NCBI GenBank assembly: GCA_049840735.1
Contig: JASGJN010000022.1
Coordinates: 352,001 to 416,000, forward strand
Direction: 5' to 3'
Source: Anaeromyxobacter sp.
Lineage (GTDB): Bacteria > Myxococcota > Myxococcia > Myxococcales > Anaeromyxobacteraceae
DNA: 64,000 nucleotides
Shown here: piece by piece, positions 733 to 23,330 of the stretch
Position numbering within the stretch: the first letter of the stretch is position 1
Layout of the letters: each line of letters opens with the position of its first letter
Notes under the pieces: generated by a model
Database searches by the model: none
The model's input: the letters and a program-made list of their open reading frames with translations, nothing else
What the model was told of the DNA's origin: nothing
Program-made: the position numbers and the translations under genes

Positions 733-1440
733 TTGAGGCCGGATCAAACGGCTGACTCCGGCGGCGCGGCACACCGGTACAACGGACGGATATACGATTC
801 CGGAACCGGCTTCCATGACAACGGCGCGCGGATGTACTGGCCAGAGATTGCGAGGTTTGTCAGTTCTGACTCGTACCAGGGAAGCACCGCAAGCCCGGCA
901 TCGATGAACCGGTATAGCTATGTAGTTAACAATCCGTACAGGTACACGGATCCGACGGGGCACAAGTTCGTCGAGATCGATGCGAGCGTTGAGCCGGTGC
1001 TTCGCGAACTTAGGAAGACCGAGACAGGGAAGGCGCTCTACGACAAGTTGGAAGGTTCCGCGCACGAGTTCCGGATTAAGGAGGAGAAGGGACCTGACGT
1101 TACGCGAAGCGTTCCGGACTCCCCCGACCTCGCCGAGTATCGCAACCGCAAATTGGGCGGCACGGGCGGCACTACGCGTTTGAGAATGGACGTTCGATAC
1201 AAGTTTGAGGACGAGAAGGGTCAGTGGCAGGAGGCTCCTCTATCTGAGGTCCTGGCCCATGAACTCAATCATTTGAGTGACTTCGATTCGGGGATGGAGG
1301 ACAACAATCCAGATCACAGTCACAGGGCGCGGACCACGAAGGAGCGGGAGGCTATGGATACGGAGAACAAGGTCCGCAAGGAACTGGGGCTGCAGGGGAG
1401 CAGGATTCAATATGATCGTTCTGTGCAAGAGCCGAAATAG
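733..1440 (+). CDS. Orphan RHS core fragment with C-terminal HExxH zinc-metallopeptidase-like toxin domain
   Basis: RYNGRIYDSGTGFHDNGARMYWPEIARFVSSD...NRYSYVVNNPYRYTDPTG is the RHS-associated core ending in the DPxG motif, followed by a tip with VLAHELNH and a downstream E (KEREAMDTENKVRKELGL). No upstream RHS repeats; the TTG start is weak. Confidence 0.85.
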   Translation: MRPDQTADSGGAAHRYNGRIYDSGTGFHDNGARMYWPEIARFVSSDSYQGSTASPASMNRYSYVVNNPYRYTDPTGHKFVEIDASVEPVLRELRKTETGKALYDKLEGSAHEFRIKEEKGPDVTRSVPDSPDLAEYRNRKLGGTGGTTRLRMDVRYKFEDEKGQWQEAPLSEVLAHELNHLSDFDSGMEDNNPDHSHRARTTKEREAMDTENKVRKELGLQGSRIQYDRSVQEPK

Positions 1441-1960
1441 CCTTCTTCTCGTGATCGGGTTGGGGATCGGGGCCGCGTGTGTGACGCCCATCGATCGTCC
1501 GTGTGACTATGGCGGTGTCATTTCCGTGGTCGCTCCGAACACGCATGCCGATCGGCGCCCCGAGATGCGGAGGTGTGTAGATGGGTGGCGGCCGTGGCAT
1601 GCGTTCCGCCAGGACCTCTTTCGCCGCTTGGGTGCGAGTCGTGCGGCTGGGGCCCGCACGGTAGTCTTGATCGAGAGCGGGCACCCTGCCTGGGCCGGAT
1701 ATGGGTACGCTCTTGTGGTCGATGGAAAGGTGGAAGGCGTTCCGCCCGCATCAGGAAGCGTCGAACGGATGCCGCCAGTAGAAGGGCTGGTGAGCGTAAT
1801 TCGGAGCGATATCGAGGACGGCGGGTGTTGGTTCTTGACGGTCTCTGAAAACGGTAAGACGTCACAGGCGATTGTCTACGGAGAGTTGGGCGGGACGGAC
1901 AGTACAAGTAGGTTGGCAAGGTGGATGGCTGAGCGAGAAAGGCGCGTCCCGTTGCCGTAG
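1412..1960 (+). CDS. Putative immunity protein (predicted lipoprotein) for the orphan RHS toxin
   Basis: ATG overlaps the toxin 3' end; hydrophobic stretch and lipobox-like LLLVIGLGIGAAC. Position is typical of polymorphic-toxin immunity genes. Confidence 0.6.
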   Translation: MIVLCKSRNSLLLVIGLGIGAACVTPIDRPCDYGGVISVVAPNTHADRRPEMRRCVDGWRPWHAFRQDLFRRLGASRAAGARTVVLIESGHPAWAGYGYALVVDGKVEGVPPASGSVERMPPVEGLVSVIRSDIEDGGCWFLTVSENGKTSQAIVYGELGGTDSTSRLARWMAERERRVPLP

Positions 1961-2538: not shown

Positions 2539-2602
2539 GGGCAAGGTATTCGCCTTGCCCGGGAACGACGAAGGGCCTCCAGGTCACCCTGAAAGCCCCG
2601 TC
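2539..2602 (-). promoter_or_regulatory. Inverted GGGCAAG/CTTGCCC site and hairpin immediately 3' of the tRNA fragment (module C end)
   Basis: GGGCAAG at 2539-2545 and CTTGCCC at 2554-2560; minus-strand hairpin GACGGGGCTTTCAGG-GTGA-CCTGGAGGCCCTTCGTC at 2567-2602. Homologous to 18493-18556. Confidence 0.6.
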
Positions 2603-2616
2603 GATGCACCAGGATT

Positions 2617-2661
2617 TGGAGCGGGAAACCGGGTTCGAACCGGCGACCCTCAGCTTGGGAA
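2617..2661 (-). repeat. att-like direct repeat: 3' 45 bp of tRNA-Gly(CCC)
   Basis: TGGAGCGGGAAACCGGGTTCGAACCGGCGACCCTCAGCTTGGGAA is identical to 18571-18615 and 7901-7945; identity ends in the anticodon loop. Confidence 0.95.
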
Positions 2662-2776
2662 TTTGGTCGGGCACGGAAGATCGCGCGGAAATGGGCGCAA
2701 AACGCAGGGTAGCGCGCTGGTTCAGTCCCGCTGAATCCTCTTCGGCCGGAACAGACCTTGCCCAGACCTTGCCCAG
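2662..2776. repeat. Conserved att-flanking element with tandem 11-bp repeats (putative integrase arm sites)
   Basis: Clearly similar to 7946-8059 (TGGTCGGGC...AAATGGGCGCAAAACGC...GCTGGTTCAGTCCCGCTGAATCC); ends in AGACCTTGCCC x2 at 2753-2774. Confidence 0.8.
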
Positions 2777-2791
2777 GTCAGCGGCCCCCGC

Positions 2792-5137
2792 TCAGTCCGC
2801 GCGTGCGTCGTCCTTGGGCCTCCAGGCTAGGCGCGTTCGATGCGCTTCGGTGCGCCGAAGCGCTGCTTCGAAGGCGGCGGTAGAGTCGGCGCGAGTCCTG
2901 GCCACGATTCCGTCGTGCGACACCAGCGCTTGCAGGCGCGAGAGCGTCTCCACTCGCGGCGCGCGACCGGCAAGGACGTCGCGAATGTCGATGAAGGCCC
3001 GTCCGCGCTGCCCGGCGATCTGGGTCTGAGCGCCGAAGTGCACGAGGTTGCAGTAATCACCGCCGCCCATCGCCGGTCCACGTAGCCCTCGACCGATCAT
3101 CTGAGCGTAAAGCCGGAGGCTCAGGGTGGGGCGTGCGAGAATGAGCGTTTGCACCGGCGGAAGGTCGAGGCCCTCAGAGACGATGTCAACGCCGATGAGT
3201 ACCGCCTGTTCATCCTGCCGGGCGCGCATCAGGAACTCGTCCCGCCTGAGCTCCAGCTCGCGCATCCGCGGATGGGGGCCGAGCACTGAAATCCTGGAGT
3301 GGAACTGCCGGACCCATACATCACGTCCGAGGCCCATGAACATCGTGCGGAGCCCGCGCTCCAGCCGGGCGGCATGATCAACATCGACTGCGAAGAACAG
3401 AGTGGGGCCAAGCGGACCGATCTCGTCCGCGTACCGGGTGAGCAGCAGTCGATAGACGGTGAGAACGAGCGGCGTGTAGTTCTTCGCGAAGAGGCCGAGC
3501 TGGCGGCGCTCTTGAAACGCCAGCGACCAGGGGTCATCGGCCACCGCCTTCAGCACCCAGCCCGTTTCGACCGAGACGTGCCGGACGTGTGCAAGGACAG
3601 GCCGACCTTGTTCCTTCAAGCGCAATGCCGTGGTCAGTGGCATCCGCTGCACCACCGCGTTCCTGGGGAACTGGATCTCGAAAGCGCGCCGTGACAGTCC
3701 GCGTCCTCGCCGCCCAGGTGTCGCGGACAAGCCCACGAGCATCTGAGTGCGCAACGCATGGGCGATCGCGCGATACCGCTTGGCCCCGAATCGATGCGCT
3801 TCATCGATGATGATGGCGCTGAACTTCGAGCGTCCAATGGCAGGCAGGTGGTGGGCCGCTGAAGCATCGGTCGCCAGGAGCACCGACGGAGGATCGGGCA
3901 CGGTCGAACCCTTGCCCTTCAAGGTGTGAATACCCACCCCAGGTCCGAGTTGCCTTGTCAGCGTCATCGCCGCTTGCTCCAGAAGCAGTTGTCGGTGCGA
4001 GAGCCAGAGAACCCGCCCACCGCGATCGACGATGGTACGTACGAACTCGGCGGCGATGAGCGTCTTGCCCGTGCCGGGAGGCATCTCGATTGTGTAGCCG
4101 GGCAACCCTTCGGCGTGCTGAGGTCTCCCCTGGCTGACAGAATGCCAGATCGCTCGGAGTGCCTGGATGCGTGCAGCCTGCCAGCGGTACGGGCGAATCC
4201 TTCCCCGGGAAGGCGCATCAGCGCCCAGCGCCAGTTGAACGGGTGCCGCCTCGCGCCAGAGTGCTTCGGCCAATGCCTCGAAGCCATGTGGGTCGCCGAA
4301 TCGCCATGCCAGGGCGACGTTCAGTTCGCAGTTCTCGATGTACCCGGCGAAGGTGGCATTGGACGAGCCGACGATCGCGATATGGTGACCAGTCGCGAGC
4401 CGGAGTAGCAGAAGCTTCGCATGGAGCGGCGCGTCGGCTGATTCTTCCGTGCGCATCCGAATGCAATGCCGGAGCACCTGGCGCCGGGACCATCGACGGA
4501 TCGATGCGAGTCGTTGCACGACCGGATCGAGATCCGATGCAGGATCACCCACGACGATGCGCACGCTGTCGAATGCGGGTGAGCAGGTTGACAGCGGCTG
4601 CGCGAGCGCGAGATCGCTCAGCGCTCCGGAGGAGCAGGTGAAAGTGGATAGGAACGCCTGGCGGACTGTCGTTGCCCTGCATAGGCCTCGCAGCAGCACC
4701 GCGAGCGGGACCCATGGAGTGCTCAAGCCTGGGGGGCCAACAAGGGTTCGAGTCAGCGCGTCCAGGAGGACTGCGGGCTGTCCTCGATCGGGAACACCTC
4801 CGTACAGCGGCGTCTCTCGCTTTCGAGCGTTGGTGCTCTCGCCCGCCGCGAGGACCTCGAATGCGGAGTTCCCCATCTCCAGAAGATCGCCTCTGCGGAG
4901 CAGGTGCTGCCCGACGATTCGTCGACCGTTGACGTAAGTGCCTCGCTCCGAGTCGAGATCCCAGACCGAAGCAGAGCCGCCGCGAGGAGCGAGGGCCGCA
5001 TGCCGTTCGGATGCAAGGGGATCGACCAACACCACGTCGACCGACGGGCTTCGTCCGAAGACCATGCGCTTCCGGACCGCGATGCGTGCAACAGGCGATA
5101 CGCCCTGAAGAACCGATAGGGAAAGCGGACCGGGCAT
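2792..5137 (-). CDS. FHA domain + PLD-like (HxK) nuclease + superfamily 2 DEAH helicase fusion
   Basis: FHA: FGRSPSVDVVL...SERHA...DLDSERGTYVNG. PLD: LHAKLLLL...IVGSSNAT...NCELN. Helicase: MPPGTGKT, IIIDEAH, LSATP, EGLDLP, QMIGRGLR. Alternative TTG start at 5143. Confidence 0.85.
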   Translation of the reverse strand: MPGPLSLSVLQGVSPVARIAVRKRMVFGRSPSVDVVLVDPLASERHAALAPRGGSASVWDLDSERGTYVNGRRIVGQHLLRRGDLLEMGNSAFEVLAAGESTNARKRETPLYGGVPDRGQPAVLLDALTRTLVGPPGLSTPWVPLAVLLRGLCRATTVRQAFLSTFTCSSGALSDLALAQPLSTCSPAFDSVRIVVGDPASDLDPVVQRLASIRRWSRRQVLRHCIRMRTEESADAPLHAKLLLLRLATGHHIAIVGSSNATFAGYIENCELNVALAWRFGDPHGFEALAEALWREAAPVQLALGADAPSRGRIRPYRWQAARIQALRAIWHSVSQGRPQHAEGLPGYTIEMPPGTGKTLIAAEFVRTIVDRGGRVLWLSHRQLLLEQAAMTLTRQLGPGVGIHTLKGKGSTVPDPPSVLLATDASAAHHLPAIGRSKFSAIIIDEAHRFGAKRYRAIAHALRTQMLVGLSATPGRRGRGLSRRAFEIQFPRNAVVQRMPLTTALRLKEQGRPVLAHVRHVSVETGWVLKAVADDPWSLAFQERRQLGLFAKNYTPLVLTVYRLLLTRYADEIGPLGPTLFFAVDVDHAARLERGLRTMFMGLGRDVWVRQFHSRISVLGPHPRMRELELRRDEFLMRARQDEQAVLIGVDIVSEGLDLPPVQTLILARPTLSLRLYAQMIGRGLRGPAMGGGDYCNLVHFGAQTQIAGQRGRAFIDIRDVLAGRAPRVETLSRLQALVSHDGIVARTRADSTAAFEAALRRTEAHRTRLAWRPKDDARAD

Positions 5138-5298
5138 GGCCAAGGGTCCTCCAGCGTCCTTTGTCGTGCATGCGTCTCCTTAACGCAGTCTCGGCAGAGG
5201 AGCAGCACGCGCTGGTCAGGGGCGACGAGCGCGCGCTCGTGAGGGCGCAAGACATCTGGGGAGTTGACGCGTCACTGGAGGCTGAGAACGCTCGTCCC

Positions 5299-5844
5299 AT
5301 GACCACATCGGAACATCCGAATGAGCAGTCAGGTCGCCGCCGTCCGCCCGGTGCGTCACTCGGAGAGGAGGCGGAAATCCAGGCGCTCGTCAAGGTTCAG
5401 CGGGCCTTGGCGCCGCTGCGCCCTGAGTCTCGTACCAGGGTTCTCGCGTGGTTCTCTCAGCCGAGCGCGCCGGGTGGGCTGAGTGTTCCCGCGTCGAACG
5501 CGGAATACGAGGACCTCAGCGCGCTATTCGAGGCGGCAGGGCCGAAATCGGAGCCGGAGCGTGTACTGGTGGCGTGCTACTACCACCTCCAGACGCGAGG
5601 CGAGTCCGACGTGGGTGCGAGGGTCATCTCGGACGAACTAAAGCAGATGGGACACGGCACGAGCCACGCATCATGGATTCTGCACCAACTCAACGCGCGC
5701 GAGCCCGCCCTCTTGATGGTGGCGTCGAGGAGTGGCTCTGGACGGGGCACGAAATACAGGTACCGCCTGACCTCGGCCGGCGCCAAACGCGTGTCGCAAA
5801 TGCTCCAATCACGCACCGATGGCAGGCCGTCAAGCAAGCACTAA
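5299..5844 (+). CDS. Small putative winged-helix DNA-binding protein
   Basis: ATG at 5299 with TTGACG upstream; C-terminal ...VISDELKQMGH...YRYRLTSAGAKRV resembles a wHTH wing (YxLTxxG). Divergent from the helicase gene. Confidence 0.55.
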   Translation: MTTSEHPNEQSGRRRPPGASLGEEAEIQALVKVQRALAPLRPESRTRVLAWFSQPSAPGGLSVPASNAEYEDLSALFEAAGPKSEPERVLVACYYHLQTRGESDVGARVISDELKQMGHGTSHASWILHQLNAREPALLMVASRSGSGRGTKYRYRLTSAGAKRVSQMLQSRTDGRPSSKH

Positions 5845-5932
5845 GGCAGCCGGGGAGAATCGGCGGCCCCACAGGCTCAGTAGCCGGCCTGGGGTGGCTC
5901 GGGCGATCGTCGGACGCATGCAAGCTTGCATG

Positions 5933-7666
5933 CTACTTGGAAGTCGGGGGGCGCTTACCCGAGGCCACGCGGTACTTGGTATTCGGCGAGCGCGGGCTAC
6001 TCGTCGTGGTCGTCACCCGGCCTTCCTTTCGCAAGATACGAAGCCATCTGCGAACCGCCTCGGAGCCCAGGGCGAGCGCTGCCGCCAGTTCCCCGGCTGC
6101 GAGGTCCCCGCGCTCTCGCAGAACCCGCACGATGTCGTCCCTTCGGTCCTTGCGCTGACGCGGGGGCGCGTGGAGGACAGGCTTGAACTCATACGTTGCC
6201 CACCTCCGCGTGCCCTTCTGCAAGATGATACGGCGCGACACGAGATCGCTGAGTTCGCGGGTTGCGAGGCGGCTGTCCAGGCCAAGCAGTTGACGGTACT
6301 TGGCGTTTGTCAGTACCTGCCCGTGCTTCATCATCGCCAAGCCCATTCGTTGGCTGTCGGTGAGCTGGCCAGGGATGGTCGAGAGCCAGGCCACGGTGGC
6401 ATCGTCCAAGAGAGTCTGGTTTGGGAAGGTCACGCGAAAAGTCGAAACCCCGTCTTCGAAGACGGGTGGAGTCATGCCCGACTGACGAAGGGCGGCCACC
6501 ATGGCGCCAATCCCGGAGCCGCGATTCTCGCAGACCGCGAAGCGGTCGCCAGGCGTGGCGACATCTTCCAGCAGTCTCATGAGCACCTGGTTGCGGGCGG
6601 ACGAGACCCCCTCCTCGCCCAAGCGTTCCAGAGATACTGGACCGTGAAGGCCACCGGGATTGACGACTGCCAAACGGTCCGGGAACATCTGAACCTGAAC
6701 TGGAGAGCTCCGGCCTGGTCCGCTCAAGTCGCGATGGACCAGCGCGTTGACGAGGGCTTCGCGAAGCGCTGTCTCCGGATACTCCCAAAGGTCCTGGCGA
6801 AACCCCTCGTGCACGATCGCGCGCCGCTTCATGTTCCGTCGAAGGGCGTCGAGCAGCGGCCCGATCATCCTCGGAACCGGGCCGTCGACCCTTCGGTTGT
6901 CCAGGAACCGCTCGCCTCCGGGTCCGGATTCGCCAACGCGTGGTGTCGGGTAGGCCACGAAGGTCGCGCCCAGGGCCGGATAGAACTGTTGCGGGTACTT
7001 CCCCAGCGCGAGTAGGCCGCCAAGAGTCGGATGGATTCCGGATTCGACGCGCGCCGCCGCCTTCAGTGTCAACAAGGCGCCAGCATCATCGAGCTTGCGA
7101 AAGGCGCTGCCTTCCGGCTCGCGCTTCCGGGCAAGCAGCGCTCCCACGAGCTCCGGATCGAGATCTTCGAGGGTTGCCTCCAGCACTGGCGTCTCGTCTT
7201 CGCGAGGTTGTCCACGAGACGCGAACAGCAGGTGCACCTCGTACTCGCTGAGCTTCCTGTCCCCGTCGCCAACGCGCAGGAACGCGCCGTTCTTGAGTCC
7301 CGCGGGGACGTAGTAGCAGGGCTTCTCCGAACTTGAGAGCTCGGGAACAGCGCAGGTGACCAAGGTCTTGCCTTCGAATCGCACCGTTTCGATTCGGGGG
7401 CTGAGTCGTGGCTGCATGTCGGCGCACATCGAGGCCAGATCGCCCTGGACCTTGCGCGCATCCAGGACTCCGACCGCAGCAAAGCCGTCGTCCTCATCGA
7501 GGCCGAGGATGATGAGTCCGCCGCCGGGTGTATTCGCAAAGGCGGACAGCGTCTCCCAGAGCCGCCTGGGAAGCTCGCGATGTGCGCGCTTCGCCTCGAC
7601 GTGCTGGTGGTCCGTCGTGAAGACGCGCAGCTCCTCGATGGCCCGATCAAGGTCTTCGGTACTCAT
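5933..7666 (-). CDS. AlbA_2 (Schlafen-like) + RecG-C/HATPase_c_4 + HTH putative regulator/nuclease
   Basis: VEAKRA...ETLSAFANTPGGGLIILGLDE (AlbA_2); YPETALREALVNALVHRD, FPDRLAVVNPGGL, ARNQVL, ENRGSGI (HATPase_c_4/RecG-C); two C-terminal HTH-like segments. Confidence 0.9.
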   Translation of the reverse strand: MSTEDLDRAIEELRVFTTDHQHVEAKRAHRELPRRLWETLSAFANTPGGGLIILGLDEDDGFAAVGVLDARKVQGDLASMCADMQPRLSPRIETVRFEGKTLVTCAVPELSSSEKPCYYVPAGLKNGAFLRVGDGDRKLSEYEVHLLFASRGQPREDETPVLEATLEDLDPELVGALLARKREPEGSAFRKLDDAGALLTLKAAARVESGIHPTLGGLLALGKYPQQFYPALGATFVAYPTPRVGESGPGGERFLDNRRVDGPVPRMIGPLLDALRRNMKRRAIVHEGFRQDLWEYPETALREALVNALVHRDLSGPGRSSPVQVQMFPDRLAVVNPGGLHGPVSLERLGEEGVSSARNQVLMRLLEDVATPGDRFAVCENRGSGIGAMVAALRQSGMTPPVFEDGVSTFRVTFPNQTLLDDATVAWLSTIPGQLTDSQRMGLAMMKHGQVLTNAKYRQLLGLDSRLATRELSDLVSRRIILQKGTRRWATYEFKPVLHAPPRQRKDRRDDIVRVLRERGDLAAGELAAALALGSEAVRRWLRILRKEGRVTTTTSSPRSPNTKYRVASGKRPPTSK

Positions 7667-7752
7667 ACAAGCAGCATGGTATCATCATGTCAGCTTGTAT
7701 GCTTGCTCGAAGCGGCGCTTGGGACGGACACTGGGTACCGAGGCCGGACAGG

Positions 7753-7774
7753 AACCTTGCCCAGATCTTGCCCG
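7753..7774. repeat. Tandem CTTGCCC repeats with 11-bp period (putative arm sites, other end of module B)
   Basis: AACCTTGCCCAGATCTTGCCCG; CTTGCCC at 7756-7762 and 7767-7773. Confidence 0.7.
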
Positions 7775-7857
7775 GCCGAGAGGCGCTCAGATGGCTCCAT
7801 TGCCTGCGAGAGAAGGGGGACGGTGGTGTCCCGCAGAGCCGCGACCGTCAACCCCAA

Positions 7858-7892
7858 CGAGAAAGGGGTCCCGCCGGTGGACGGAACCCCTC
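7858..7892 (-). terminator. Intrinsic-terminator-like hairpin 3' of the tRNA fragment
   Basis: Minus strand GAGGGGTTCCG-tccaccgg-CGGGACCCCTT followed by TCTC, ~9 nt after the CCA end. Confidence 0.6.
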
Positions 7893-7900
7893 GGAAGAAC

Positions 7901-7945
7901 TGGAGCGGGAAACCGGGTTCGAACCGGCGACCCTCAGCTTGGGAA
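7901..7945 (-). repeat. att-like direct repeat: 3' 45 bp of tRNA-Gly(CCC)
   Basis: Identical to 18571-18615 and 2617-2661. Confidence 0.95.
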
Positions 7946-8059
7946 AGTGGTCGGGCGCGGAAGACCACGCGAAAATGGGCGCAAAACGCGGGGTCGAGGC
8001 TGGTTCAGTCCCGCTGAATCCCGTTCGGCTGGGACGGACCTTGCCCGGACCTTGCCCGG
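7946..8059. repeat. Conserved att-flanking element with tandem 11-bp repeats
   Basis: Similar to 2662-2776; TTCAG-N5-CTGAA palindrome at 8004-8018; GGACCTTGCCC x2 at 8036-8057. Confidence 0.8.
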
Positions 8060-8502
8060 TGGGCCGCGCGCCGCCGTGCCTTCGAAGAGCACGAGCACGC
8101 GCAGCGCCGGAGACGCGTCTCAAACTTGCTGCCCTGTCGCGCCGAGGCGTCAAGAAGCCGCAGATGGCCGGGTGCTTTGGGCTGCGGCCGCAGGCGTTCA
8201 GCGGGTCCTGCGGCAAGACCCGGAGTTCACTTCGCATCTCGGTCTTCGTCGCTCTGCTCGCCGTCTGCACGAGTTCACCAAACGCGAAGCGGTGCTCCTC
8301 GATTCAGCGCCTCTTTTGGAAGGCCGTTGACCCTTCGCGGCCATCCTGCTGACATCCCCGCACCGCAGCTGCAGTTGGGGGGGGAGCGCTGGGACGGACG
8401 GGCCGCGCCCGTGGACCTCAGCGCCCCTCGACAGAACACTACGTAGATTCCTCGCCCGGCCGAGGGCGCGACTCGTGTGCGCGTCGCCTGCCTGGAGGAC
8501 GA

Positions 8503-11500
8503 ATGAACCGCTTGCTCCAGGCTGTCGGAGTTGTGCTGCTGCTCGTGTCTACCGCGAGTGCGGCGTCCCCGTCGAAGCCGAACACCTCGCGCCTCGAGCC
8601 GGCGGCGCTAGCGAGCCCGGGCAACGCGCGGGTGGGTGACGGGTTGCGCCTCGACTACGCCGTGAGGAACCCCACCGCGCTGGCATCCGCCCGTGGCCAG
8701 GTGACGTTCTCGCTGTCCTCGGCCACGAGCACGGCCGCCTCGCTGCAGGCCAGCGGGGCAGCAGCCCCCAGCGCTGTCGCGGCGGGAAGAAGCTACCGGC
8801 TCACCAGCGTTTCGCTGGAGGGCCTGGCGGCGGGCCAGACGGTGAGCGGTTCCGTGGTCGCCGCGGTGCCCAACATGGCCGCGGGCGAGTACAACCTCGT
8901 GGCCGTGGTGCACGAAAGCGGGCACCCCGTCACCGACGATCGGGCTCTGACCTCGACCCACGTGGTCACGGTGGCCGCCCGCACAAGCGTGCTGCCGAAC
9001 CTCTCGGTGGTAAGCGTGAGCGGCCCGACCCTGGTAGCGACCGACACGACCATCACCGGAACGGCCATCTTCGCGAACGATCCGGCCGGCTCGGTCGCGG
9101 CCGGTGACTTCGTCTCGGAGTTCCAGCTGGCGCTCGATGGCTTCCCCGAGGTGATCGCTGCGGCGGAGCAGCCTACCGTCGCGGGCCCCCTCAGCCCGGG
9201 CGCCCAGGTGCAGGTGCAGGCCGCCCTGGCCGTGCCCGCGAACGCGACACCGGGGACCTACCGGATCCTGGCCCGGGCCGACGTCACCGACACGGTGCTG
9301 GAGTCCAGGGAGGACGACAACCAAACGGCGGGCGCGGAGATCCAGGTGGTGGTCGACGCCCTGCCGCCGGAGCTCCACGTGACGGCTCCAGCGGATGGGC
9401 TGGTCCTGTCCGGCACCGAGGCGACCGTGACCGTGAGCGCCACCGACGACGCCGGGGTCCGCGCCGTCACAGCCAACGGCCTTCCGCTGCTGCCGAACCC
9501 TAGCGGAACTTGGAGTGGGGCCGTGCCACTGCTCGAGGGCCCCAACGCGCTGGTGGTGACGGCGACCGATCTCGTCGGACACGAGACCACCCAGGAGATC
9601 CACGTCCGGCGAGACACCATCGCGCCTGCGCTGGAACTCACCTCGCCGGCGGGCGGCAGCGAGGTCTACGCAACCTCAATCAGGTTGGCGGGCCGGTTGG
9701 TCGACGCTGGTCCTGTCGCTTTGCAGGTTGCGGGCGCAGCGGTTCCAGTGGCGGCCGATGGATCCTTCGGCGTCGACGTGCCCCTGGCGATGGGGGACAA
9801 CGCGTTCACGCTGGTGGCGGTCGACCAGGCGGGGAATCGGGCGTCGGCCATCGTGCATATCCAGCGGGTGACGCCGCCGCTGCGCGTGACGGTGAGCGAG
9901 CCGGCGGCAGCTTTCGTGGTGAAGTCGGCCTTGCTCTCGGTGCGTGGCGTCGTCACGGGTGCGCAGGGCACGGCTACCGTGACCGTGAACGGTACCCAGG
10001 CGCCGCTCTCCGGCGACGGGTCCTTCTCTGCGATGACCACGGTTGCTGTCGGGCAGGTCTCCGTGGAGGTGGCTGCAGCCGACGCCTCGGGGCAGACCGT
10101 TCGCGTGGTGATCCAGGGGACGCGCGTCGGGGCCGGTACCGACGGCGCTGCGGCGGGCTGGTGCGACTCGAAGCCTGGGACGGCCATGACCTATGACCCG
10201 GCCGGGAACCTGACAGGCATCTACGACACGGCCAACGACGTGTCCAACTGCGGCTGCCCGGGCCACGCCTGTGCGCCGAGCGCCGCGGGCGCTGCGGCCT
10301 GCAGCAAGGGCGTTTGCGGCGTGGTCGCCGGAGCGGGGTTCATCGGACTTTCGAACGACCCGACCAACTGCGGCACGATCGGGCACGTGTGTCCGGCGGT
10401 CGCGAATGGTGGGGCCACCTGTGAGAACGGCTCCTGCGCTGTCGAGTGCGCCACCGGCTACGCGGCCATCGGGAGCGGGTGCTTCGACATCCTGCGCGAC
10501 CCGCTCAACTGTGGCTCGGTCGGGAACGTGTGCCAGGCCACCACCATGGGCGTGCCGGTGTGCACCGATGGTCTCTGTGGGCTCGAGTGCCGGCCGGAGC
10601 ACGTCTCGGTGGGCGGGCGGTGCATCGACATCAACACCGACCCGCAGAACTGCGGGACCGTCCAGAACGTTTGCCCCGGGACGGACAACGGATCGGGCGT
10701 CTGCGTGGACGCTCGCTGCGGCCTGCAGTGCGACCCCGGGTACGTGATGAGGGGTTGGTACAGCTGCGTGGACCTTTCCACCGACCCCGAGAACTGCGGA
10801 GCGGTCTACAACCAGTGCCCCACGTCCGATCACGGCACCACGACCTGCTCGAACGGAGTCTGCAACCTTCAGTGTGAGCCGCACTACTTGCAGCAGGCCG
10901 GGGCCTGCATCGACGTCGCGGTCGATCCCGCGAACTGCGGCGGAGCCGGCGTGGCCTGCTCGGTTCCCCGCAACGCGTACCCCACCTGCACTGACGCGGT
11001 CTGCGGCTTCGCCTGCAACCCCGGGTACGTGCTCCGCGGAGGTCAGTGCGAGCCGCGCGATCCGACCTCGGATCTGGACTACTGCGGCGCGGACGCGGTC
11101 CAGTGCCCTCCGGACGAGCACGGCGTCGCCGATTGCGACAACGGCGTCTGCGGCGTGACCTGCAACGCGGGTTACGGGCTGTACGGGGGCGTCTGCGTCC
11201 CCTCGACCGACCCGGCGCACTGCGGGACGCGCACCACGGCCTGCCCGACCGTGGCGCACGCGGTCGCGCTCTGCATCAACAACACCTGCGATCTCCGCTG
11301 CGCCGACGGCTACGAGCGTTCCGGCAACACCTGCGTAGCCGTCGCGGCGGACCCGCTCAACTGCGGCTGGGTGGGCCACCGCTGCACGACGCCGGCCCAC
11401 GGAACGGCCGTGTGCGAGGCCGGCGCCTGCGGCGTGAGCTGCAATGCAGGATATCCCGAGCAGGACGGGGCCTGCGTCGACGTCCAGACTGATCAGTGGA

Positions 11501-12987
11501 ACTGCGGGGCGCTGGAGAACATCTGCCCGGGGGCGTACGAGAACTCGGCCACGTGCTCGGCGGGCGTCTGCGCGACGGTAGGCGCGCCCTCGATCACCGG
11601 GGTAGCCCGGATGCGCACGGTGTTCGCGATCAGCTACACCTCCTCCACGGGCCTGCTCGCCCTCCAGGACGATCTGACGAGCAATCCCCCCTCCTCGGTG
11701 ATCGGCGGTGACGGGACGACCGAATACCAGGTCCTCTCGGTCTCGCCGGCGGGGCTGATGCTGGCGCGCGGGCTCGATCCCGCGGTGGTGCTCACCGGCG
11801 AGGAGTGGGCCGAGGGCACCTGGTGGAAGGCGAGGCTCGTGTTCCCGCCGTCGGCCAGCGACACGATCGACCTCACCCGCAATGACGGCCTCGTCGTGCG
11901 CGGAACGGGCCTGCGCGCCGATGGGCAGCTCGGGCTGATGACGACCGCAGGAGACGTCCCCGGCGACCTGTCCTCGGCCATCTACTCGGCCGACAAGGCC
12001 GTGGTGCCCGAGATCCGCGACATCACCGAGCGCTTCGCCTTCGTGGCCTTCCGATCGGTTCGCGGGGACGCTGCCACCTGGAATCCGGTCAGGTGGAGTG
12101 ACGCACCGCGGATCACGAGCATCCGGGCCGAGGGCGACTACGACTGCGGAGCGGATACCTGGGCGTGTCCTTCCTACGTGGCCTACGGACGGCAACTAGC
12201 GGTCGAGGGCTACTGGCTCGACAACGTCAACCTGGTGTCGTTCGAGCATGTGGTGTCCGGGGACAACGCGGAGGAACTGGTGCCTGCCCGCGGCTCCGGG
12301 AGCGCGTCTCCTGACTGGTATCAGGTGACCGACGCCAATCACCTCACGCTCTGGCTGGATGTGGACGGCGGCCCGGTGGCGCGCGGCCTGTTGCTGAGGA
12401 GCACCTACAACGGGTCCTACACCACGTATCTGCAGGAGCCGTATCCGGGGCTTCGGTATCTGTCGTTCATCCAGTCCGATGAGAACGGCCTTCAGGGCTT
12501 CTCCGTGGCACTGACTGCGGTGCCCCCGTCCACTAAGGCGATCAGCTACGGTCGCGTGCTCACCAACCGGGGCTATCGCAGCGATTGGGACTCGTTCGAG
12601 GTGGGCACCGTCAGCCCTCTGGACGACGACCGCCTGCTCTTCCGCGCAAACGCCTTCACGGCTGGAGACGTGGACTCCATCCGCTTCGTCTCCCACTGGG
12701 GTGGCACGCCATGCCCGGCCGCGGTGAAGAGCTTCGGGGGCTCGCCCATCGTCGTGCGCTTCGAGCCGATGGACTACTTCCCGTCCGCGTACTGCCGCAT
12801 GGTCGTCCGGCTAAAGGATGGCTCGGAGATCTACAGCCCGTTCACCTTCTGGTTCGCCAGCAAGCACGCACCGCTGCCCCCGACGCCCGATCCGGGTGAT
12901 CCCGGGCCGGACCCTGACCCGCAGCCGTTCCCGATGCCCCAGCCTCGCACGCCGGGCCAGGGCTCGACCAACACGGTGATCCCGTGA
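8503..12987 (+). CDS. Large secreted surface protein: CARDB/Ig-like domains, Cys-rich D(P)xNCG repeats, Pro-rich tail
   Basis: GGAGG RBS; signal peptide MNRLLQAVGVVLLLVSTASA; CARDB-like PNLSVVSVS...VLESREDDN; Ig-like D..PP.L.VT.P..G repeats; about nine DPxNCG-type repeats; C-terminal PTPDPGDPGPDPDP. Confidence 0.85.
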   Translation: MNRLLQAVGVVLLLVSTASAASPSKPNTSRLEPAALASPGNARVGDGLRLDYAVRNPTALASARGQVTFSLSSATSTAASLQASGAAAPSAVAAGRSYRLTSVSLEGLAAGQTVSGSVVAAVPNMAAGEYNLVAVVHESGHPVTDDRALTSTHVVTVAARTSVLPNLSVVSVSGPTLVATDTTITGTAIFANDPAGSVAAGDFVSEFQLALDGFPEVIAAAEQPTVAGPLSPGAQVQVQAALAVPANATPGTYRILARADVTDTVLESREDDNQTAGAEIQVVVDALPPELHVTAPADGLVLSGTEATVTVSATDDAGVRAVTANGLPLLPNPSGTWSGAVPLLEGPNALVVTATDLVGHETTQEIHVRRDTIAPALELTSPAGGSEVYATSIRLAGRLVDAGPVALQVAGAAVPVAADGSFGVDVPLAMGDNAFTLVAVDQAGNRASAIVHIQRVTPPLRVTVSEPAAAFVVKSALLSVRGVVTGAQGTATVTVNGTQAPLSGDGSFSAMTTVAVGQVSVEVAAADASGQTVRVVIQGTRVGAGTDGAAAGWCDSKPGTAMTYDPAGNLTGIYDTANDVSNCGCPGHACAPSAAGAAACSKGVCGVVAGAGFIGLSNDPTNCGTIGHVCPAVANGGATCENGSCAVECATGYAAIGSGCFDILRDPLNCGSVGNVCQATTMGVPVCTDGLCGLECRPEHVSVGGRCIDINTDPQNCGTVQNVCPGTDNGSGVCVDARCGLQCDPGYVMRGWYSCVDLSTDPENCGAVYNQCPTSDHGTTTCSNGVCNLQCEPHYLQQAGACIDVAVDPANCGGAGVACSVPRNAYPTCTDAVCGFACNPGYVLRGGQCEPRDPTSDLDYCGADAVQCPPDEHGVADCDNGVCGVTCNAGYGLYGGVCVPSTDPAHCGTRTTACPTVAHAVALCINNTCDLRCADGYERSGNTCVAVAADPLNCGWVGHRCTTPAHGTAVCEAGACGVSCNAGYPEQDGACVDVQTDQWNCGALENICPGAYENSATCSAGVCATVGAPSITGVARMRTVFAISYTSSTGLLALQDDLTSNPPSSVIGGDGTTEYQVLSVSPAGLMLARGLDPAVVLTGEEWAEGTWWKARLVFPPSASDTIDLTRNDGLVVRGTGLRADGQLGLMTTAGDVPGDLSSAIYSADKAVVPEIRDITERFAFVAFRSVRGDAATWNPVRWSDAPRITSIRAEGDYDCGADTWACPSYVAYGRQLAVEGYWLDNVNLVSFEHVVSGDNAEELVPARGSGSASPDWYQVTDANHLTLWLDVDGGPVARGLLLRSTYNGSYTTYLQEPYPGLRYLSFIQSDENGLQGFSVALTAVPPSTKAISYGRVLTNRGYRSDWDSFEVGTVSPLDDDRLLFRANAFTAGDVDSIRFVSHWGGTPCPAAVKSFGGSPIVVRFEPMDYFPSAYCRMVVRLKDGSEIYSPFTFWFASKHAPLPPTPDPGDPGPDPDPQPFPMPQPRTPGQGSTNTVIP

Positions 12988-13046
12988 AGCGCCCAGCGGC
13001 TGTGTCCCGTCCTTCGCGTCCTGAACACCGAGGCCTCGAGGCTCTC

Positions 13047-16000
13047 ATGAGAATCAAGTCTTTCTGCGGATTCGCCCTCCTCGCCCTCCTCGCGCTGCCG
13101 CTCGGCGCCTGGGCGCAGCAGACGTCCCAGCCCCGCGGTGACGTGGCCGACGCGTTCTTCCGCTTCACCGGCACCGAGAACAAGCCCTTCGCCTCGGAGC
13201 TGCCTGGCGAGACGGTCGATCCGTTCACCGGGACGCTGCACATCGTGCAGACGGATGTGGTGCTGCCGGGGCACGGCGGGCTCGACTTCCGCATCATCCG
13301 CTCGTACAGCAGCAAGATCTGGGGCAGAGCCGACCTGCTCGACTCAGAGCCCCTGCTGGCCGAGAAGGAAGCGTCGATTCTCGGGTACGGCTGGAGCCTG
13401 CACTTCGGGCGCCTTCGTAACCCCTGGGCGACCGGGAAGAGCGACATCTGTGGCGGCGACTTCCCTGTCTTCGAGGAGCCGGACGGTACCTCGCACGTCT
13501 TCTACCCGCACCGGACCCTCGGGAACGTGTTCGTCTCCAAGGACTACTGGCGGATGGAGCGGAACTGCGCAGCGGCCGGCGCTGGCGGGACCTGCGTCTG
13601 GTCCAGCAGCGGTCTCCGCTATGACTTCCTACCGTCCAGCACGGTGGATGGGGTGGCTCGACTCAACACGTTCCAGGTGGGCGGTACCGCGGTGCTTCCG
13701 GCGGTGCGCGTCGTGGACCCGTTCGGCAATCAAATCACGTACACCTATATCGCTTCGACCGGTGCTCCCGAGTCAGTTAAGGATACGTACGAAAGAATCG
13801 TCGAATTCCGCTATAGCGTGATCAATGCCGAGCGCCGGCTCCAGAGCATCCTGCTCAACGGCAAGGCCTTCACCTACGGGTACGAGACGCTCAGACCCGA
13901 GGACGTGGCTGGCCACACTGGCCGATTTCCGCTGCCCGGACCCAGGCGCTTCCTCACGCAGGTCACTCCGCCCGCCGGCCCCTCGTCCTACTACAGCTAC
14001 TGGCTCGATACCCCCGTCGGTGAGAACCAGTATGCGCTGCGGACGATCACCTATCCTGCCGGCGGATCCACGACCTACAACTACGGCGCGGTCGCGTTCT
14101 TCACCGGACTCGAGACCGTCTCATTTGCGACGGTGACCAGCCGCGTCACCGGCGGTCGGGGAATCGCCGCAGGAGAGTGGACGTACGAATACCGATCGCC
14201 CGGCTACAAGACGTACGATTCGACTGATCCCGAGGACGGAAGCAAGTCTGACCTTCACGTCACGACGATCACGCGTCCGGACGGTCTCCACGATACGTAT
14301 ACGCTGTACGGATTCGGGTGGGCTGCCGATCAGGATCGTTTCGGCTACACCTACGCCGTGGGGTTGACGCGCTCGATAGCAAGAGCGGACCGGGCCGAGG
14401 TCGAGTACTTCGACTGGGACCTGCGCATCGAGCAACCGGTCTCCGACGCGACGTTCAGCGCTCCGGTCTACTCCACCAGCTGCGGAGCCCACTTCGTGGC
14501 GGACGGCGGCGTGTACGCGCCACAGGTCGCGCACCACTGGTTGATGCGCGACGAGGATCAAGGAACTGGCCAAGCCGCCTGGTTTCAGACGGACTACAGC
14601 AATTTCGACGCTTACGGCCAGGCATTGTCGATGGTGGAGACCGGTTACAGCGGCAGCCTTGGAGACATCCCGCCGGTCCCGGCCGTGAGGACGACCGAGC
14701 TCTCCTACTTCTCGGCTCCCGAGGAAGGCGGCCAGACGCTCAACATGGTCCGGGGGAAACTCCTGACGCAGTCGATCTGCGTGAGCGGCGACTGCTTCCA
14801 GGATGCTTGGAGCTACGACGAGCCCGGCCACCCTGTGCACCTGGAGGTGAAGAGCGGCGTCGCCACCCGGTTCGACCACTACCTCGACGGCGATTCTCAA
14901 GAGCGTGACCAACGCCGCGAACAAGCAGGTCACGCTGTCCGACTATGAGTTCGGTCTGCCCAAGACTGCTTCGGTTCGGGGCGGTCCGACCACCAGCAGG
15001 TCGGTCACCTGGGAAGGTTGGGTCAACAGCCGCACGACTGGCCGGAACTTCACGACCACGATCGATCTTGACGACGTCGGGCGGCCGCTCCTTGTGACGC
15101 CACCCGGTGCGAGCGAGCCGACCCGATACACCTACGCCGCAGATGGCTCGACGCTGACAGAGACCCGGGGCGCCTACAGCAAGGTGGCTTCTCTTGACGG
15201 GCTGGGCCGAGCCGTGGCGACGCTCGACTCGCTGGGCGTGAAGTCCAGCGTCACCTTCGACGCGATGGGAAGAACGACGTTCAAGTCCTACCCTTACGAC
15301 GACACCCGCGGCGAAGTCGGCGAGCTGAGCGAGCTTGACGGCCTCGGGCGCGTTATCACCGCGACCCAAGGTTACCGACCCAGCCGGGGAGCGTGCGATA
15401 GGCCCGGGGCTTGTCAGACGCGAATTGCCTATAAGTACAACTGCACGGAGAGTTGGGTGGAGCGCGGCCCCAAGGACGTCACCGAAACGGGCGCGTGCTT
15501 CGTCTCCTACGGTAGCCCGGACGAACAGCGGCTCGCGCAGGTGGCCGCGCGCACGGCCCCGGGCGGAGGCTGGGCCTACTGGCAGTATGCATATACCGCC
15601 GCAGGCCAGCTCAAGGGCGTGACGGCGCCGCTCGACCAGGCCGACGCCCAGCAGAACTTCGACGAGCACCAGTTCCTGCGGCGCGCTGTGAGCCATGAAA
15701 GCGGCGAGACCGTCTTCACCCCGAACGCCATCGGGCAGCCGACGTCGCGCGTGGACGCCCGCTCGGTCGCAACGCAGTATGGCTACGAGGATCCGCTCAG
15801 CCGCCTCCGCACGATCACGTACCCGGGTGACCCGGCCAACGACGTCCGACTGGACTACGACGAGGACAGCAACCTGAGCACGAGCGCCAGCGCGAATGGG
15901 GGTTCGTACAGCTACGGCTACGACGAGCGGGATCGCCTCACATCCCAGACCTGGACCATCGCCGGGCACGCCTACATCACCACGTACCACTACGATCCAA

Positions 16001-17572
16001 CGGGCTGTCTGGACTCCGTCACCTACCCCACCGGAACCACCTTGACCCAGACCTGCGACGCCGCGAACCGGGTCGCGAGCCTCACGGCCAATGGGCAGCC
16101 GATCGTGGGCCAGGTCACCTACCATCCGACCGGGCAACCTGCGACCTTCACTTATGGAAACGGCGTCGGAGACCGAGGTGGTCATCGACGATCGGGGCCG
16201 GGTCTCGTCCATCACCGCGGGCGACGTGATGGCGTTGACCTACGGCTACGACGGAGCCGGGAACGTGACGTCGCTGGACGACCGCGCCGTGGGAGGCAGC
16301 GCACGCTTCATGGTGTACGACCCCGCCGACCGTCTTCAGAGCGTATCCGCGCCCGGGCTGTGGGGCTTGGCCTTGTACGCCTACGATGAGCTCGGCAATC
16401 GGACGCTCAAGCACGTTGGCGACGACGTGACCTACAGCTACGACGCGAACAACCGGCTCAGGTCCTCGACCGAGGCGCCGAGCCGTGGGACCATGACGCT
16501 GACCTGGGATGGCGAAGGCCGGCTGGCGACGTCGTCGGACGGAGCCCTCTACCGGTACAACGGTCAAGGTCTCCGCGTGCTCAAGCGTGACGGCTCAGGC
16601 GTCACGGTGTACCACCACGATGGCGCCGGCCGCGTGATCGCCGAGACCCGCCCTGACGGCACGCTCCTCCGGGAGTATTTCTTCTTCGCGGGCCAGCTGG
16701 TCGCGGTCCACGGCTGCGTCGCGGGTAGCGCTAGCTGCAGTGCGCTGGAGTGGTATCACACTGACACGCTCGGCAGCGCCACGGCCCGGACCGATGCCAG
16801 CGGCAACGTCACGTCCCGCGTGCAGTACGATCCATGGGGCGGCGAATGGTCCGAGCAGGGCGAGATGGGCGCTCGGCGGTTCAACGGGCGGGTCCACGAC
16901 CCAGGGACCGGCTTCCATGATTACGGTGCGCGGTTGTATTGGCCGGAGATGGGACGATTCGCCAGTGCGGACACCGTTCTCGGAAAGTCGGAGAGCGTGG
17001 CCTCCCTGAACAGGTACAGCTACGCTTGGAACAACCCATACAAGTTCATCGACCCAAGCGGGCACAGTGTGTTTGTGGTAGGCGACCCTGAGGCCTACGA
17101 GACCGCTACGGCATACCTACGCCAGGACCCAGCAATGCGCGAGGCCATTGACCAACTTCAATCGCCGGATACGCCGCTGGTGACCGTTGTCGTCTGCGAT
17201 ACGTGCAAAGACTCCTACAAACCAAGTGCCAGGGAAATCAGGTGGAACCCGAAACTTGCACACACGGGGTTCGCGGATGGATCCGGGCCGCGGACAGAAT
17301 CGGGCGAGCCGGGGGTCCAAAGTCCCGCGATGGCGCTTGGACATGAACTGGCACATGCTGCTGGACACGGTGCCGGTGGCCCCGCAGGGGAGGAGATAGT
17401 CGACTACCCTGCAGGCGCATACGTTAACATGGAGGAGATGCGCGTGATCACCGGTCCGGAGGCCAGTGCCGCGCGGACCCTTGGCGAAGATGCTCGAATG
17501 GATCATCGCGGCAAATCGGTGCACGTATCTGGCCCCCTGGATCGGACGGTTCCTGATGAACACGCGAGATAA
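13047..17572 (+). CDS. Signal-peptide RHS/YD-repeat polymorphic toxin with C-terminal HExxH metallopeptidase-like tip; two apparent frameshifts (~14895, ~16168)
   Basis: Signal peptide MRIKSFCGFALLALLALPLGAWA; ETVDPFTGTL...DVVLPG..GL...RSYSS...GYGW (DUF6531-like); YD repeats across three successive frames; core WYHTDTLGS...YDPWG...NNPYKFIDPSG; tip SPAMALGHELAHA...EEMRVITGPE. Confidence 0.85.
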
Positions 17573-18041
17573 GCCAGGAGGTTGGGTCGCCCTTGGGGTA
17601 GTCCTTGTCGCGTTGGGCTGTCCTGGCCGTCCCTTGGCGGAACCGGTCAGCCCAGCGGTGAAGGCCTTTGCCGCGGCACGGTTTCAACCGCTGAGGCGGC
17701 TTGCGGATCTCCCGCAAGACGTGAGGGTGGCTGTAGACGCCGCGCTGCAGCACGAGCCGCTGGCCGATGCTGGAGAGGACTGGAACCCGACCTGTCTCGT
17801 CAACGAGGACTTGCCTGGCCAGCATCTTCTCTTTGCTGGCGGCTCGAAGGACCTCTGGTTCATCTACATCGAGATCGGCGGATACGGGTTGGGCTACCAC
17901 GTGTACACGTTCCGCCGCGCCAAGGGACGTGTGATCCTCGAGGGCGACTGGAGCGTGTCAGCCGATCCCGTCGCGTCCATAGACGCTCTGCAGACAGCGG
18001 TCCTATCTGAGGCGCAGGCTGCAGAGTTCCGGGACAGATGA
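17556..18041 (+). CDS. Putative immunity protein (exported/lipoprotein) for the RHS toxin
   Basis: ATG overlaps the toxin 3' end; hydrophobic WVALGVVLVALGC lipobox-like segment. Confidence 0.6.
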   Translation: MNTRDKPGGWVALGVVLVALGCPGRPLAEPVSPAVKAFAAARFQPLRRLADLPQDVRVAVDAALQHEPLADAGEDWNPTCLVNEDLPGQHLLFAGGSKDLWFIYIEIGGYGLGYHVYTFRRAKGRVILEGDWSVSADPVASIDALQTAVLSEAQAAEFRDR

Positions 18042-18492
18042 TCCCCGTCCAAAGGGCGCGCTTGAGCGCTTGTACAACCGACCCCGGGCCGGCTTGCGTG
18101 AATCCTTGGCCCGCACCGCACAGCGCTGGACCATCGGAACATCGGGCGTGCTCGTTATGCGTTGAGCACGCCAGCGCCTAGTGGATTCCCTGGCCAGGGG
18201 AGTTGGTCCACGTCGCCTCGTATTCCGCAAGCGGCTGCCGATCTCTATCGGCGGGCGACCAGTTCAGCGGGTTGCTAGAACCGCATCGTGGGTCGCGGTC
18301 GTACATGGTCGACAGTCGACCTCCTGGAGTCATGGGCCTGGGTTCCGTCCCGGCCAGGCCCGCCGGCCAGGCGTTCGCTCGACGCCGTAGAAGCGAGCTT
18401 GCCTGACAGCGCGCCCGGCCCGAAACTCAGGATTCTGAGGGTCGCCTGAAAACCGAAGGTCCCTCAGCCGCTTGCTGCGACCCCGCGGGCCC

Positions 18493-18556
18493 GGGCAAGG
18501 TATTCACTTGCCCGCAGAAAGACGAAGGACCTCCAGGTTTCCCCGAAAGCCCCGTC
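18493..18556 (-). promoter_or_regulatory. Inverted GGGCAAG/CTTGCCC site and hairpin 3' of tRNA-Gly (module A end)
   Basis: GGGCAAG at 18493-18499 and CTTGCCC at 18507-18513; hairpin GACGGGGCTTTCGGG-GAAA-CCTGGAGGTCCTTCGTC; homologous to 2539-2602. Confidence 0.6.
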
Positions 18557-18570
18557 GCTACATCGGAATT

Positions 18571-18646
18571 TGGAGCGGGAAACCGGGTTCGAACCGGCGA
18601 CCCTCAGCTTGGGAAGCTGATGCTCTACCAACTGAGCTATTCCCGC
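18571..18646 (-). tRNA. tRNA-Gly (anticodon CCC)
   Basis: Reverse complement GCGGGAATAGCTCAGTTGGTAGAGCATCAGCTTCCCAAGCTGAGGGTCGCCGGTTCGAACCCGGTTTCCCGCTCCA: 76 nt, full cloverleaf, TTCGAA T-loop, encoded CCA. Confidence 0.98.
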
Positions 18647-19483: not shown

Positions 19484-19580
19484 GGCCTTCGACTTCGGGC
19501 CCGCGGACGCGGGCCCTACGCTCAGGCCGAACGGACGGATAGGAACCCGCTCGCCCCGCGCCAGGCTCGGGGCGAACGGT
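19484..19580. repeat. REP-like palindromic repeat (CCTTCGAC...CGCTCAGGCCGAACGG family)
   Basis: Near-identical to 23118-23168 except the hairpin loop; lies between convergent genes. Confidence 0.75.
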
Positions 19581-23117: not shown

Positions 23118-23330
23118 GGCCTTCGACTTCGGGCCCGCTTCGCGGGCCCTACGCTCAGGCCGAACGGACAGAGGGCAGGGGCTCCAGTCTCCGTTCACCC
23201 TGGGCGCAGCGAGCCCGCAGGGCGGGCGCGGAGCGGAAGGGCTCAGGCCGAAGGGACGCAGGACCGGCGCTTCGGGTCCCGTTCGCCCTGAGCGAGGCGA
23301 GCCCGGAGGCCGAGCGGAGTCGAAGGGCAG
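23118..23330. repeat. Cluster of REP-like palindromic repeats (inverted units)
   Basis: CCTTCGAC...CGCTCAGGCCGAACGG followed by inverted copies CCGTTCACCCTG... and CCGTTCGCCCTGAGCG...GTCGAAGGG between prfA and prmC. Confidence 0.75.

Follow-up and report, generated by a model that had tools for sequence, protein, structure and literature searches.

Organization of the Array at tRNA-Gly(CCC)

The window analyzed here is a 64,000-nt stretch of the genome of Anaeromyxobacter sp. (positions 352001-416000 of contig C22, JASGJN010000022.1; this 6.67-Mb genome is referred to as G000). It contains an intact tRNA-Gly(CCC) gene with an encoded CCA (18571-18646, minus strand; tRNA prediction and sequence comparison), which is the anchor and the target of a tandem array of cargo modules. 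The 3′ 45 nt of the tRNA (18571-18615, minus strand), hereafter the attachment (att) core, recur on the same strand as displaced tRNA 3′ halves at 7901-7945, the junction of modules A and B, and at 2617-2661, the junction of modules B and C. The copies starting at 2617, 7901, and 18571 are exact and are the only three in the 6.67 Mb searched, as are the copies of the first 20 nt of the 45-mer. The exact shared run, 45 nt long (48 nt between the outer two copies), opens with tRNA position 32, where the 7-nt anticodon loop begins. This loop is among the crossover subsites reported for integrases that target tRNA genes (PMC4383910). The core copies bound two complete modules, A (10,670 bp) and B (5,284 bp). 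A first-pass annotation, made from the sequence alone, had reported the two displaced repeats, the stop of identity in the anticodon loop, and both module sizes, all of which were reproduced. The GC content is 62-71% over the array and about 70-80% on either side. A third module, C, starts at 2616 and is truncated: no degenerate copy of its distal core was found in C22:200001-420000, save one 18-mer with three mismatches 72 kb away. Upstream of the window, where module C ends (L010:17500-20000), lie broken open reading frames (ORFs) that look like transposases by inspection and that may have removed its distal end.

Beside each displaced core lies a tRNA-distal end of about 113 bp, which we call Y (module A, 7946-8057; module B, 2662-2774). 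The two copies, already noticed as homologous elements of ~115 bp, are 85% identical and both finish in two direct CCTTGCCC repeats spaced 11 bp (8039-8057 and 2756-2774). As first described, only a short distance, 17 nt, separates the stop codon of the ORF at 2792-5143 from the final arm repeat of module B, which ends at 2774. The proximal end of modules A and C, called X, is ~155 bp long and contains a hairpin, an arm pair, and an inverted core half-site ~137 nt from the core. In module A (18418-18570), the inverted core-like site, overlooked in the first-pass annotation, is at ~18418-18445, the arm pair at 18493-18513, and the hairpin with its T-run at 18553-18526, just past the tRNA 3′ end and terminator-like; in module C (2464-2616), a degenerate inverted core-like site is found at ~2480 and the arm pair at 2539. 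The likeness of the intact-tRNA and far-copy flanks, which had been remarked upon, amounts to 79% identity over 101 nt and 72% over 155 nt. The middle-copy flank (7755-7900) matches the other two at 51-53%, the level of a shuffled control (51%); judged by its sequence, it is a second type of proximal end, Xb, not homologous to X, in which an arm direct pair (7755-7773) is followed by a spacer and a hairpin. The proposal of shared att arms thus holds for Y, common to A and B, and for X, common to A and C, but not for the proximal arms of the whole array, because module B ends in Xb. The Xb end of module B is open in the frame by which the genes of an integrase of related genomes, IntB (see below), read through att. 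Xb is an end type formed by the tail of the integrase gene, and no catalytic domain is found in the window.

Conservation of the Module Ends in Relatives

The module family is confined to Anaeromyxobacteraceae: of the 363 genomes of the order, 8 contain the Y arm block, all from this family, and records that share these ends bear the titles Anaeromyxobacter sp. or Anaeromyxobacteraceae. Within the genus, 32 of 37 genomes contain the core and 5 of 37 contain at least three copies. The core-plus-Y pattern retrieved 9 stretches on 6 contigs of species genomes and 51 listed stretches in metagenomes, where some rows repeat and many contigs are near-identical; for 34 metagenome loci, the scan covered the retrieved stretches. 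One genome, G050, displays four X-core-Y junctions on a single contig. The Y-arm and X-hairpin patterns gave no match in viral contigs.

After de-duplication, 37 distinct Y ends (median identity 83.5%) and 28 distinct X ends (median 70%) were available, and these ends stay conserved around unrelated cargo. In 437 of the 465 pairs compared, Y ends cease to be similar within 0-4 nt of the last arm, and this sharp edge holds even for ends that are identical over their last 60 nt. The arm motif is present in 23/28 X ends, the search pattern having selected Y arms and not X features. Allowing for a single mismatch, the inverted core-like site is found in 23 of the 27 distinct X ends, compared with 22 of 10,219 equally sized windows of cargo, and in none of 32 ends of T1, a second element type at this tRNA described below. 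Conservation of X is at background 16 nt beyond this site. Because related X ends have its 7-nt spacer and its outer half in common, the inverted core-like site looks more like an outermost protein-binding site than a capture junction. Capture of cargo by strand exchange at the site is weakened by the same sharing and by the point at which X-end similarity stops, about 10-22 nt further out. Altogether, at least nine distinct complete Y...X modules carry unrelated cargo between one stereotyped end pair with no integrase trace, and X was never found beside any integrase among the loci examined. Another candidate feature, the T4 hairpin as a native flank of the tRNA, was rejected, an integrase reading into it in G005.

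The same architecture in independent genomes and contigs makes it hardly credible that the array is an assembly artefact. Indel-like breaks do exist in this assembly (prmC and Rhs, see below), but the three core copies have only 45-48 nt in common and differ in their flanks and cargo.

Two observations concern the interior of modules. Arm repeats and partial ends recur inside some of them, where they bracket one- or two-gene blocks such as toxin-antitoxin (TA)-like pairs (L155:3806-5475; L043/L044, G011:C2:332196-333775), which hints at stepwise addition of cargo beside arms. In L090, L091, and L063, fragments of an Xis-like gene and of an integrase, related to the tRNA-Pro island of G000 (contig C14), lie just inside a Y end and are probably nested cargo.

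Modules without Recombinases

The phage integrase profile PF00589 has nine matches in G000, none of them on C22, where the serine recombinase families PF00239 and PF07508 also gave no match. We searched 44 complete module rows and module C in six frames, with stops read through, for three integrase profiles (hmmsearch --max); the rows include kin and are not independent. Modules A and B contain neither a recombinase nor a remnant, in agreement with the first-pass annotation, which had recognized none and had reasoned that integrase remnants in each module would denote ordinary decayed islands. An integrase trace was found in none of the 22 X-ended rows, corresponding to 13 distinct modules (two rows have unfilled gaps, each with a complete twin). 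Among Xb-ended modules, two of seven distinct ones match an integrase, as do 8 of 10 T1-ended modules, several by truncated remnants, and one of three rows with unclassified proximal ends. Integrase decay leaves traces where it occurred, and X modules show none. Modules range from 985 to 20,595 bp and are multi-gene, with genes on both strands, so that their initial description as minimal cassettes was overstated.

These counts bear on the main rival explanation, ordinary accretion of cis-mobilizable elements (CIMEs), in which each module would have arrived with an integrase of its own that disappeared once the module had inserted, and would now move only in cis with an active neighbor, or not at all. 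Such accretion is a published three-step model (PMC5704250), and 15 of 31 Dehalococcoides ssrA islands are reported to be devoid of an integration module (PMC3146451). Decay of IntB is also visible in Xb modules, with cargo between arms and integrase gene (G020 and G051) or broken genes (G051, G092, and G094). The explanation fits module B well and is probably true of it; ordinary decay is a live explanation there because the end type of this module accompanies decaying IntB genes in relatives. For X-ended modules, by contrast, a remnant is found in 0 of 13, whereas T1 modules often keep one; modules as small as 985 and 1,103 bp retain the full X end; and X is stereotyped, sharp-edged, and beside no integrase here. 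As an account of the array as a whole, we therefore regard CIME accretion as a serious contender but a somewhat unlikely one.

A Candidate Integrase

A tyrosine integrase next to similar arm motifs, the search for which had been recommended, was found at this tRNA in relatives. IntB is 345-367 aa long, contains PF00589, and is preceded by a gene that appears by inspection to encode an excisionase-like helix-turn-helix protein. At this tRNA, Xb-ended modules contain an intact IntB gene in G020 and broken ones in G051, G092, and G094 (the G094 fragment came from a separate search), and G004 has an intact but unplaced copy on contig C225. In G092 and G094, the IntB frame runs through the Xb arms and the core, while in G020 and G051 cargo lies between arms and int. 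Variants of the arm sequence track three IntB clades: GGGCAAGG goes with the G051 clade, GGGCAACC with G092/G094, and GGACAACC with G020, where the adjoining X module has the same variant. The arms of the window, GGGCAAGG, match the G051 clade, whose IntB falls into a 90% cluster of 36 members, many of them full-length. No close relative of IntB was found in viral contigs (only distant integrases, 26-39% identical), phages, or plasmids.

The integrases encoded by G000 on C14, C4, and C13 were considered as helpers and set aside, as their islands, located at tRNA-Pro and tRNA-Val/Asp, have different arm sequences. Tandem islands also occur at the tRNA-Pro(CGG) gene of C14 (G000:C14:120682-134768), where a 12.4-kb phage-like island with a distal integrase-like ORF of 460 aa is followed by an Xis-like gene and by an integrase whose frame crosses the att repeat.

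Exchange of Modules

We clustered 125 junctions by their cargo-side sequence. More than one partner was found for seven proximal and three distal ends, although in some cases the clustered ends are related without belonging to the same module. A 3,714-bp module (99.97% identical; end x54) adjoins the tRNA in L101 and L081 and is at least three modules out in G050, its x54 end lying beside the tRNA or beside the distal end y22. The y24 end is beside an X end in four contigs and beside an Xb end in two. The y39 end, identical over 600 nt, has either a T1 or an X end as its partner; the core common to both is only 19 nt long and spans the anticodon loop, and the breakpoint of the partner swap is inside these last 19 bp of core. 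These comparisons show that modules were gained or lost at the core. Of the reshufflable order previously envisaged, the part that stands is that the same modules have different neighbors in near-identical contigs; all observed adjacencies can also be accommodated in one linear order by gains and losses, with no reversal seen.

Proposed Origin and Mobilization of the Modules

Alongside the observed geometry, end family, and absence of integrases from X-ended modules, the best explanation for the X...Y modules, and a fairly probable one, is that they are mobilized in trans by IntB. The array would have grown by repeated site-specific insertion of the lambda type into the anticodon loop of tRNA-Gly(CCC), the attP of a circular module consisting of a proximal end, the 45-nt tRNA 3′ half, and a Y end. 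Each insertion would rebuild the tRNA, put a hairpin behind it, and shift older modules outward; the geometry is observed, whereas this order of events is inferred. X...Y modules, such as A, would form a standing non-autonomous family that has kept the integrase core and arm sites with no integrase, and would be inserted and excised in trans, most likely by Xis and IntB from rare sister elements at the same tRNA. Modules with Xb, such as B, would be derivatives of IntB elements in which cargo entered between the arms and the integrase gene, which was then lost; intermediate stages of this decay are seen in relatives. Recombination between similar Y ends would also delete or swap modules. The array of the window is probably dormant until an IntB element arrives, because the assembly of this genome contains no IntB. 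Of the suggestion that a single integrase mobilizes the modules in trans, the finding of IntB beside the same kind of arms in relatives is retained, while the enzyme was not found in G000 itself.

Several points weigh against mobilization by IntB. At E-values below 1e-60, IntB was detected in only 4 of 368 genomes of the class, and it was absent from the five array-bearing genomes searched (G000, G050, G011, G019, and G053; completeness 56-94% for the four with figures). Such rarity fits a visitor acting in trans only if the modules are still mobile, and relics would look equally so. Three of the four IntB copies tied to Xb are broken (G051, G092, and G094), which is the decay path of CIMEs. 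In G004, the contigs with intact IntB (C225) and with an Xb end (C246) have no end overlap, and IntB could not be joined to the att site. The Y end of the G092 IntB module has the arm position and spacing of a cassette Y but shares only ~57% of its last 60 nt with it, so that no direct parent of the cassettes is among the elements found. The correspondence of arm variants with IntB clades was seen at one or two loci per clade, and many of the metagenome contigs are near-identical, hence not independent, and were chosen by the Y pattern. The single linear order of modules belongs to the same side of the balance.

So does the y22 copy of G050, a 15.5-kb module whose Y arm differs from that of its twins despite identical cargo, which points to recombination within Y and not to a crossover at the core. 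This swap of Y arms, together with exact sequence of up to about 60-80 nt common to junctions, would be expected if the modules were dead relics whose variation came solely from homologous recombination and gene conversion between similar junctions. We consider this very improbable: one swap took place with just 19 nt in common, covering the anticodon loop, and the arm sites and inverted core-like site are conserved across 27-28 X ends.

Lastly, T1 integrases are commoner than IntB and often adjoin X...Y-family modules. Mobilization in trans might therefore depend on a T1-type integrase or a related one from host islands: T1 elements use the same core, have arms with an 11-bp period, and adjoin Yc ends in many contigs, and the G000 integrases at tRNA-Val/Asp and tRNA-Pro are 32-45% identical to T1. 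However, T1 arms are TTGCTAC instead of CTTGCCC, T1 modules mostly have their own Yt ends, the arms beside the G000 integrases differ, and the arm variant tracks the IntB clades, which makes a helper of this kind improbable.

Comparison with Known Systems

Integrons are characterized by an integrase gene beside the array, by attC sites that are imperfect palindromes recombined as single-stranded hairpins, by mostly single-gene, co-oriented cassettes, and by a cassette promoter reading into the array. The present array is similarly polarized, being composed of recombinase-less units with newcomers next to a fixed anchor. It differs in having no local integrase, sites made of the tRNA core and arm repeats (by inspection) instead of attC, multi-gene units of 1-20 kb in both orientations, and a terminator-like hairpin after the tRNA. 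At the head of the array, this hairpin comes right after the tRNA, no sigma-70-like site was found, and promoter-scan counts are at chance level. Beyond its polarity, the integron-like organization claimed in the first-pass annotation does not hold. One could still imagine the X...Y modules as a dedicated, double-stranded counterpart of integrons, a gene-collection system with a reusable ~270-bp end kit in which cargo would be captured at the outer edges of the arm block and of the second, inverted integrase site, while a roaming Xis-IntB element would load the modules at tRNA-Gly, excise them, and change their order; we hold this to be doubtful.

The closest known kind is CIME accretion, and by sequence the array has the properties of CIMEs: its modules contain no integration or transfer genes, and core and arms are present at both ends of A and B as putative attL and attR. 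CIMEs of the ICESt1/ICESt3 model are likewise flanked by att sites, lack such genes, and accumulate at a single target, where the most recent arrival lies next to the gene (PMC5704250). They are described there as individual decayed integrative and conjugative elements (ICEs) or integrative and mobilizable elements moved in cis, whereas the present modules combine one end pair with unrelated cargo and an extra inverted core-like site in X. Dehalococcoides ssrA islands also occur in tandem at one RNA gene with strain-variable cargo and, for 15/31, no integration module, but 16/31 have a syntenic one, boundaries are 20-bp repeats, and the portion of the account considered describes no conserved arm family for the integrase-less islands (PMC3146451). 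One stereotyped end kit around unrelated cargo sets the array apart from both CIMEs and ssrA islands.

The tDNA islands catalogued by Islander resemble the array by their 3′ tDNA fragment, their crossover subsite in the anticodon loop, and their occurrence in tandem (PMC4383910). Displaced tDNA fragments in the correct orientation are present here, an integrase in each member is not. As Islander requires the latter, such arrays are filtered out; its 3,919 islands include four tandems with at least three members (PMC4383910). Tycheposons are cargo elements that also integrate at tRNA genes and remodel islands, but all 937 described encode a site-specific integrase, many with replication genes (bioRxiv 10.1101/2020.12.28.424599); such an integrase is not found in modules A and B. 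In the myxophages Mx8 and Mx9, attP is inside int (PMC6070905); the IntB and T1 genes of relatives similarly read through arms and att core, while the window retains only the Xb-type tail, with an open frame, as an arm. We found no account of this module family in the literature, with most subscription journals outside the search.

Island catalogues that require an integrase miss such arrays, so that a path by which genes spread among myxobacteria of soils and sediments, with TA systems, Wadjet, Rhs toxins, and catabolic and respiratory operons as its cargo, would go unrecorded. The conserved ends, together with a candidate integrase clade and the arm variants that track it, make the choice between dead relics and a live non-autonomous class directly testable. 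If live, the X-core-Y kit with IntB would be a repeatable integration tool for Anaeromyxobacter.

Cargo of the Modules

We ran Pfam on 100 predicted proteins from 19 related modules, one gene remaining unmapped, and found no gene common to the whole family; a shared backbone, as sibling ICEs would have, is absent. By our own reading of these results, 10 of the 19 modules carry TA, defence, or toxin genes (HicB, MqsR, PIN, zeta, Wadjet JetABCD, an RlaP pair, Schlafen, and Rhs). The notion of a toxin/defence array is therefore overstated, and many modules carry metabolic or transport genes, including a TRAP transporter with a CoA ligase, an aromatic meta-cleavage cluster, Hcp/prismane, a corrinoid cluster, a sulfatase, and a tyrosinase. 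In one locus (L121:435-7124), a complete Wadjet-like jetABCD cluster and mqsRA fill a single 8-kb X...Y module.

Pfam was also run on 13 ORFs of the array region. Module A encodes a 1494-aa protein with CARDB, Glucodextran_B, and Stig1-like repeats (8503-12987, plus strand), probably a surface protein, followed by an Rhs protein with DUF6531, RHS repeats, and an HExxH-bearing tip (12984-17572, plus strand). The latter is read in three overlapping frames, reflecting either indel errors or a pseudogene. A small ORF after the Rhs tip (17466-18041, plus strand), with no Pfam match, is by its position a candidate immunity gene. Module B encodes a 577-aa Schlafen AlbA_2 and HATPase_c_4 protein (5933-7666, minus strand), a conserved hypothetical protein of ~184 aa (5290-5844, plus strand), and a 783-aa protein with FHA, PLD-like, and ResIII/helicase domains (2792-5143, minus strand), which appears defence-like by domain content. 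The defence label rests on domain content because PADLOC matches in the region are partial-domain only. A Schlafen AlbA_2/HATPase protein is also encoded in the IntB module of G020 (L049:5729-7444), and proteins of similar appearance are encoded by further islands at this tRNA. Module C, for which no distal Y or core was found, contains an orphan Rhs tip (Peptidase_M91) and a downstream 179-aa ORF (733-1960, plus strand).

Outside the array, a prmC-like methyltransferase gene (labeled by inspection; 22230-23098, minus strand) is broken into two frames, suggesting that the assembly contains indel errors, which bears on the frame breaks of Rhs. Intergenic repeats resembling repetitive extragenic palindromic elements are found at 19508-19539 and 23141-23316.

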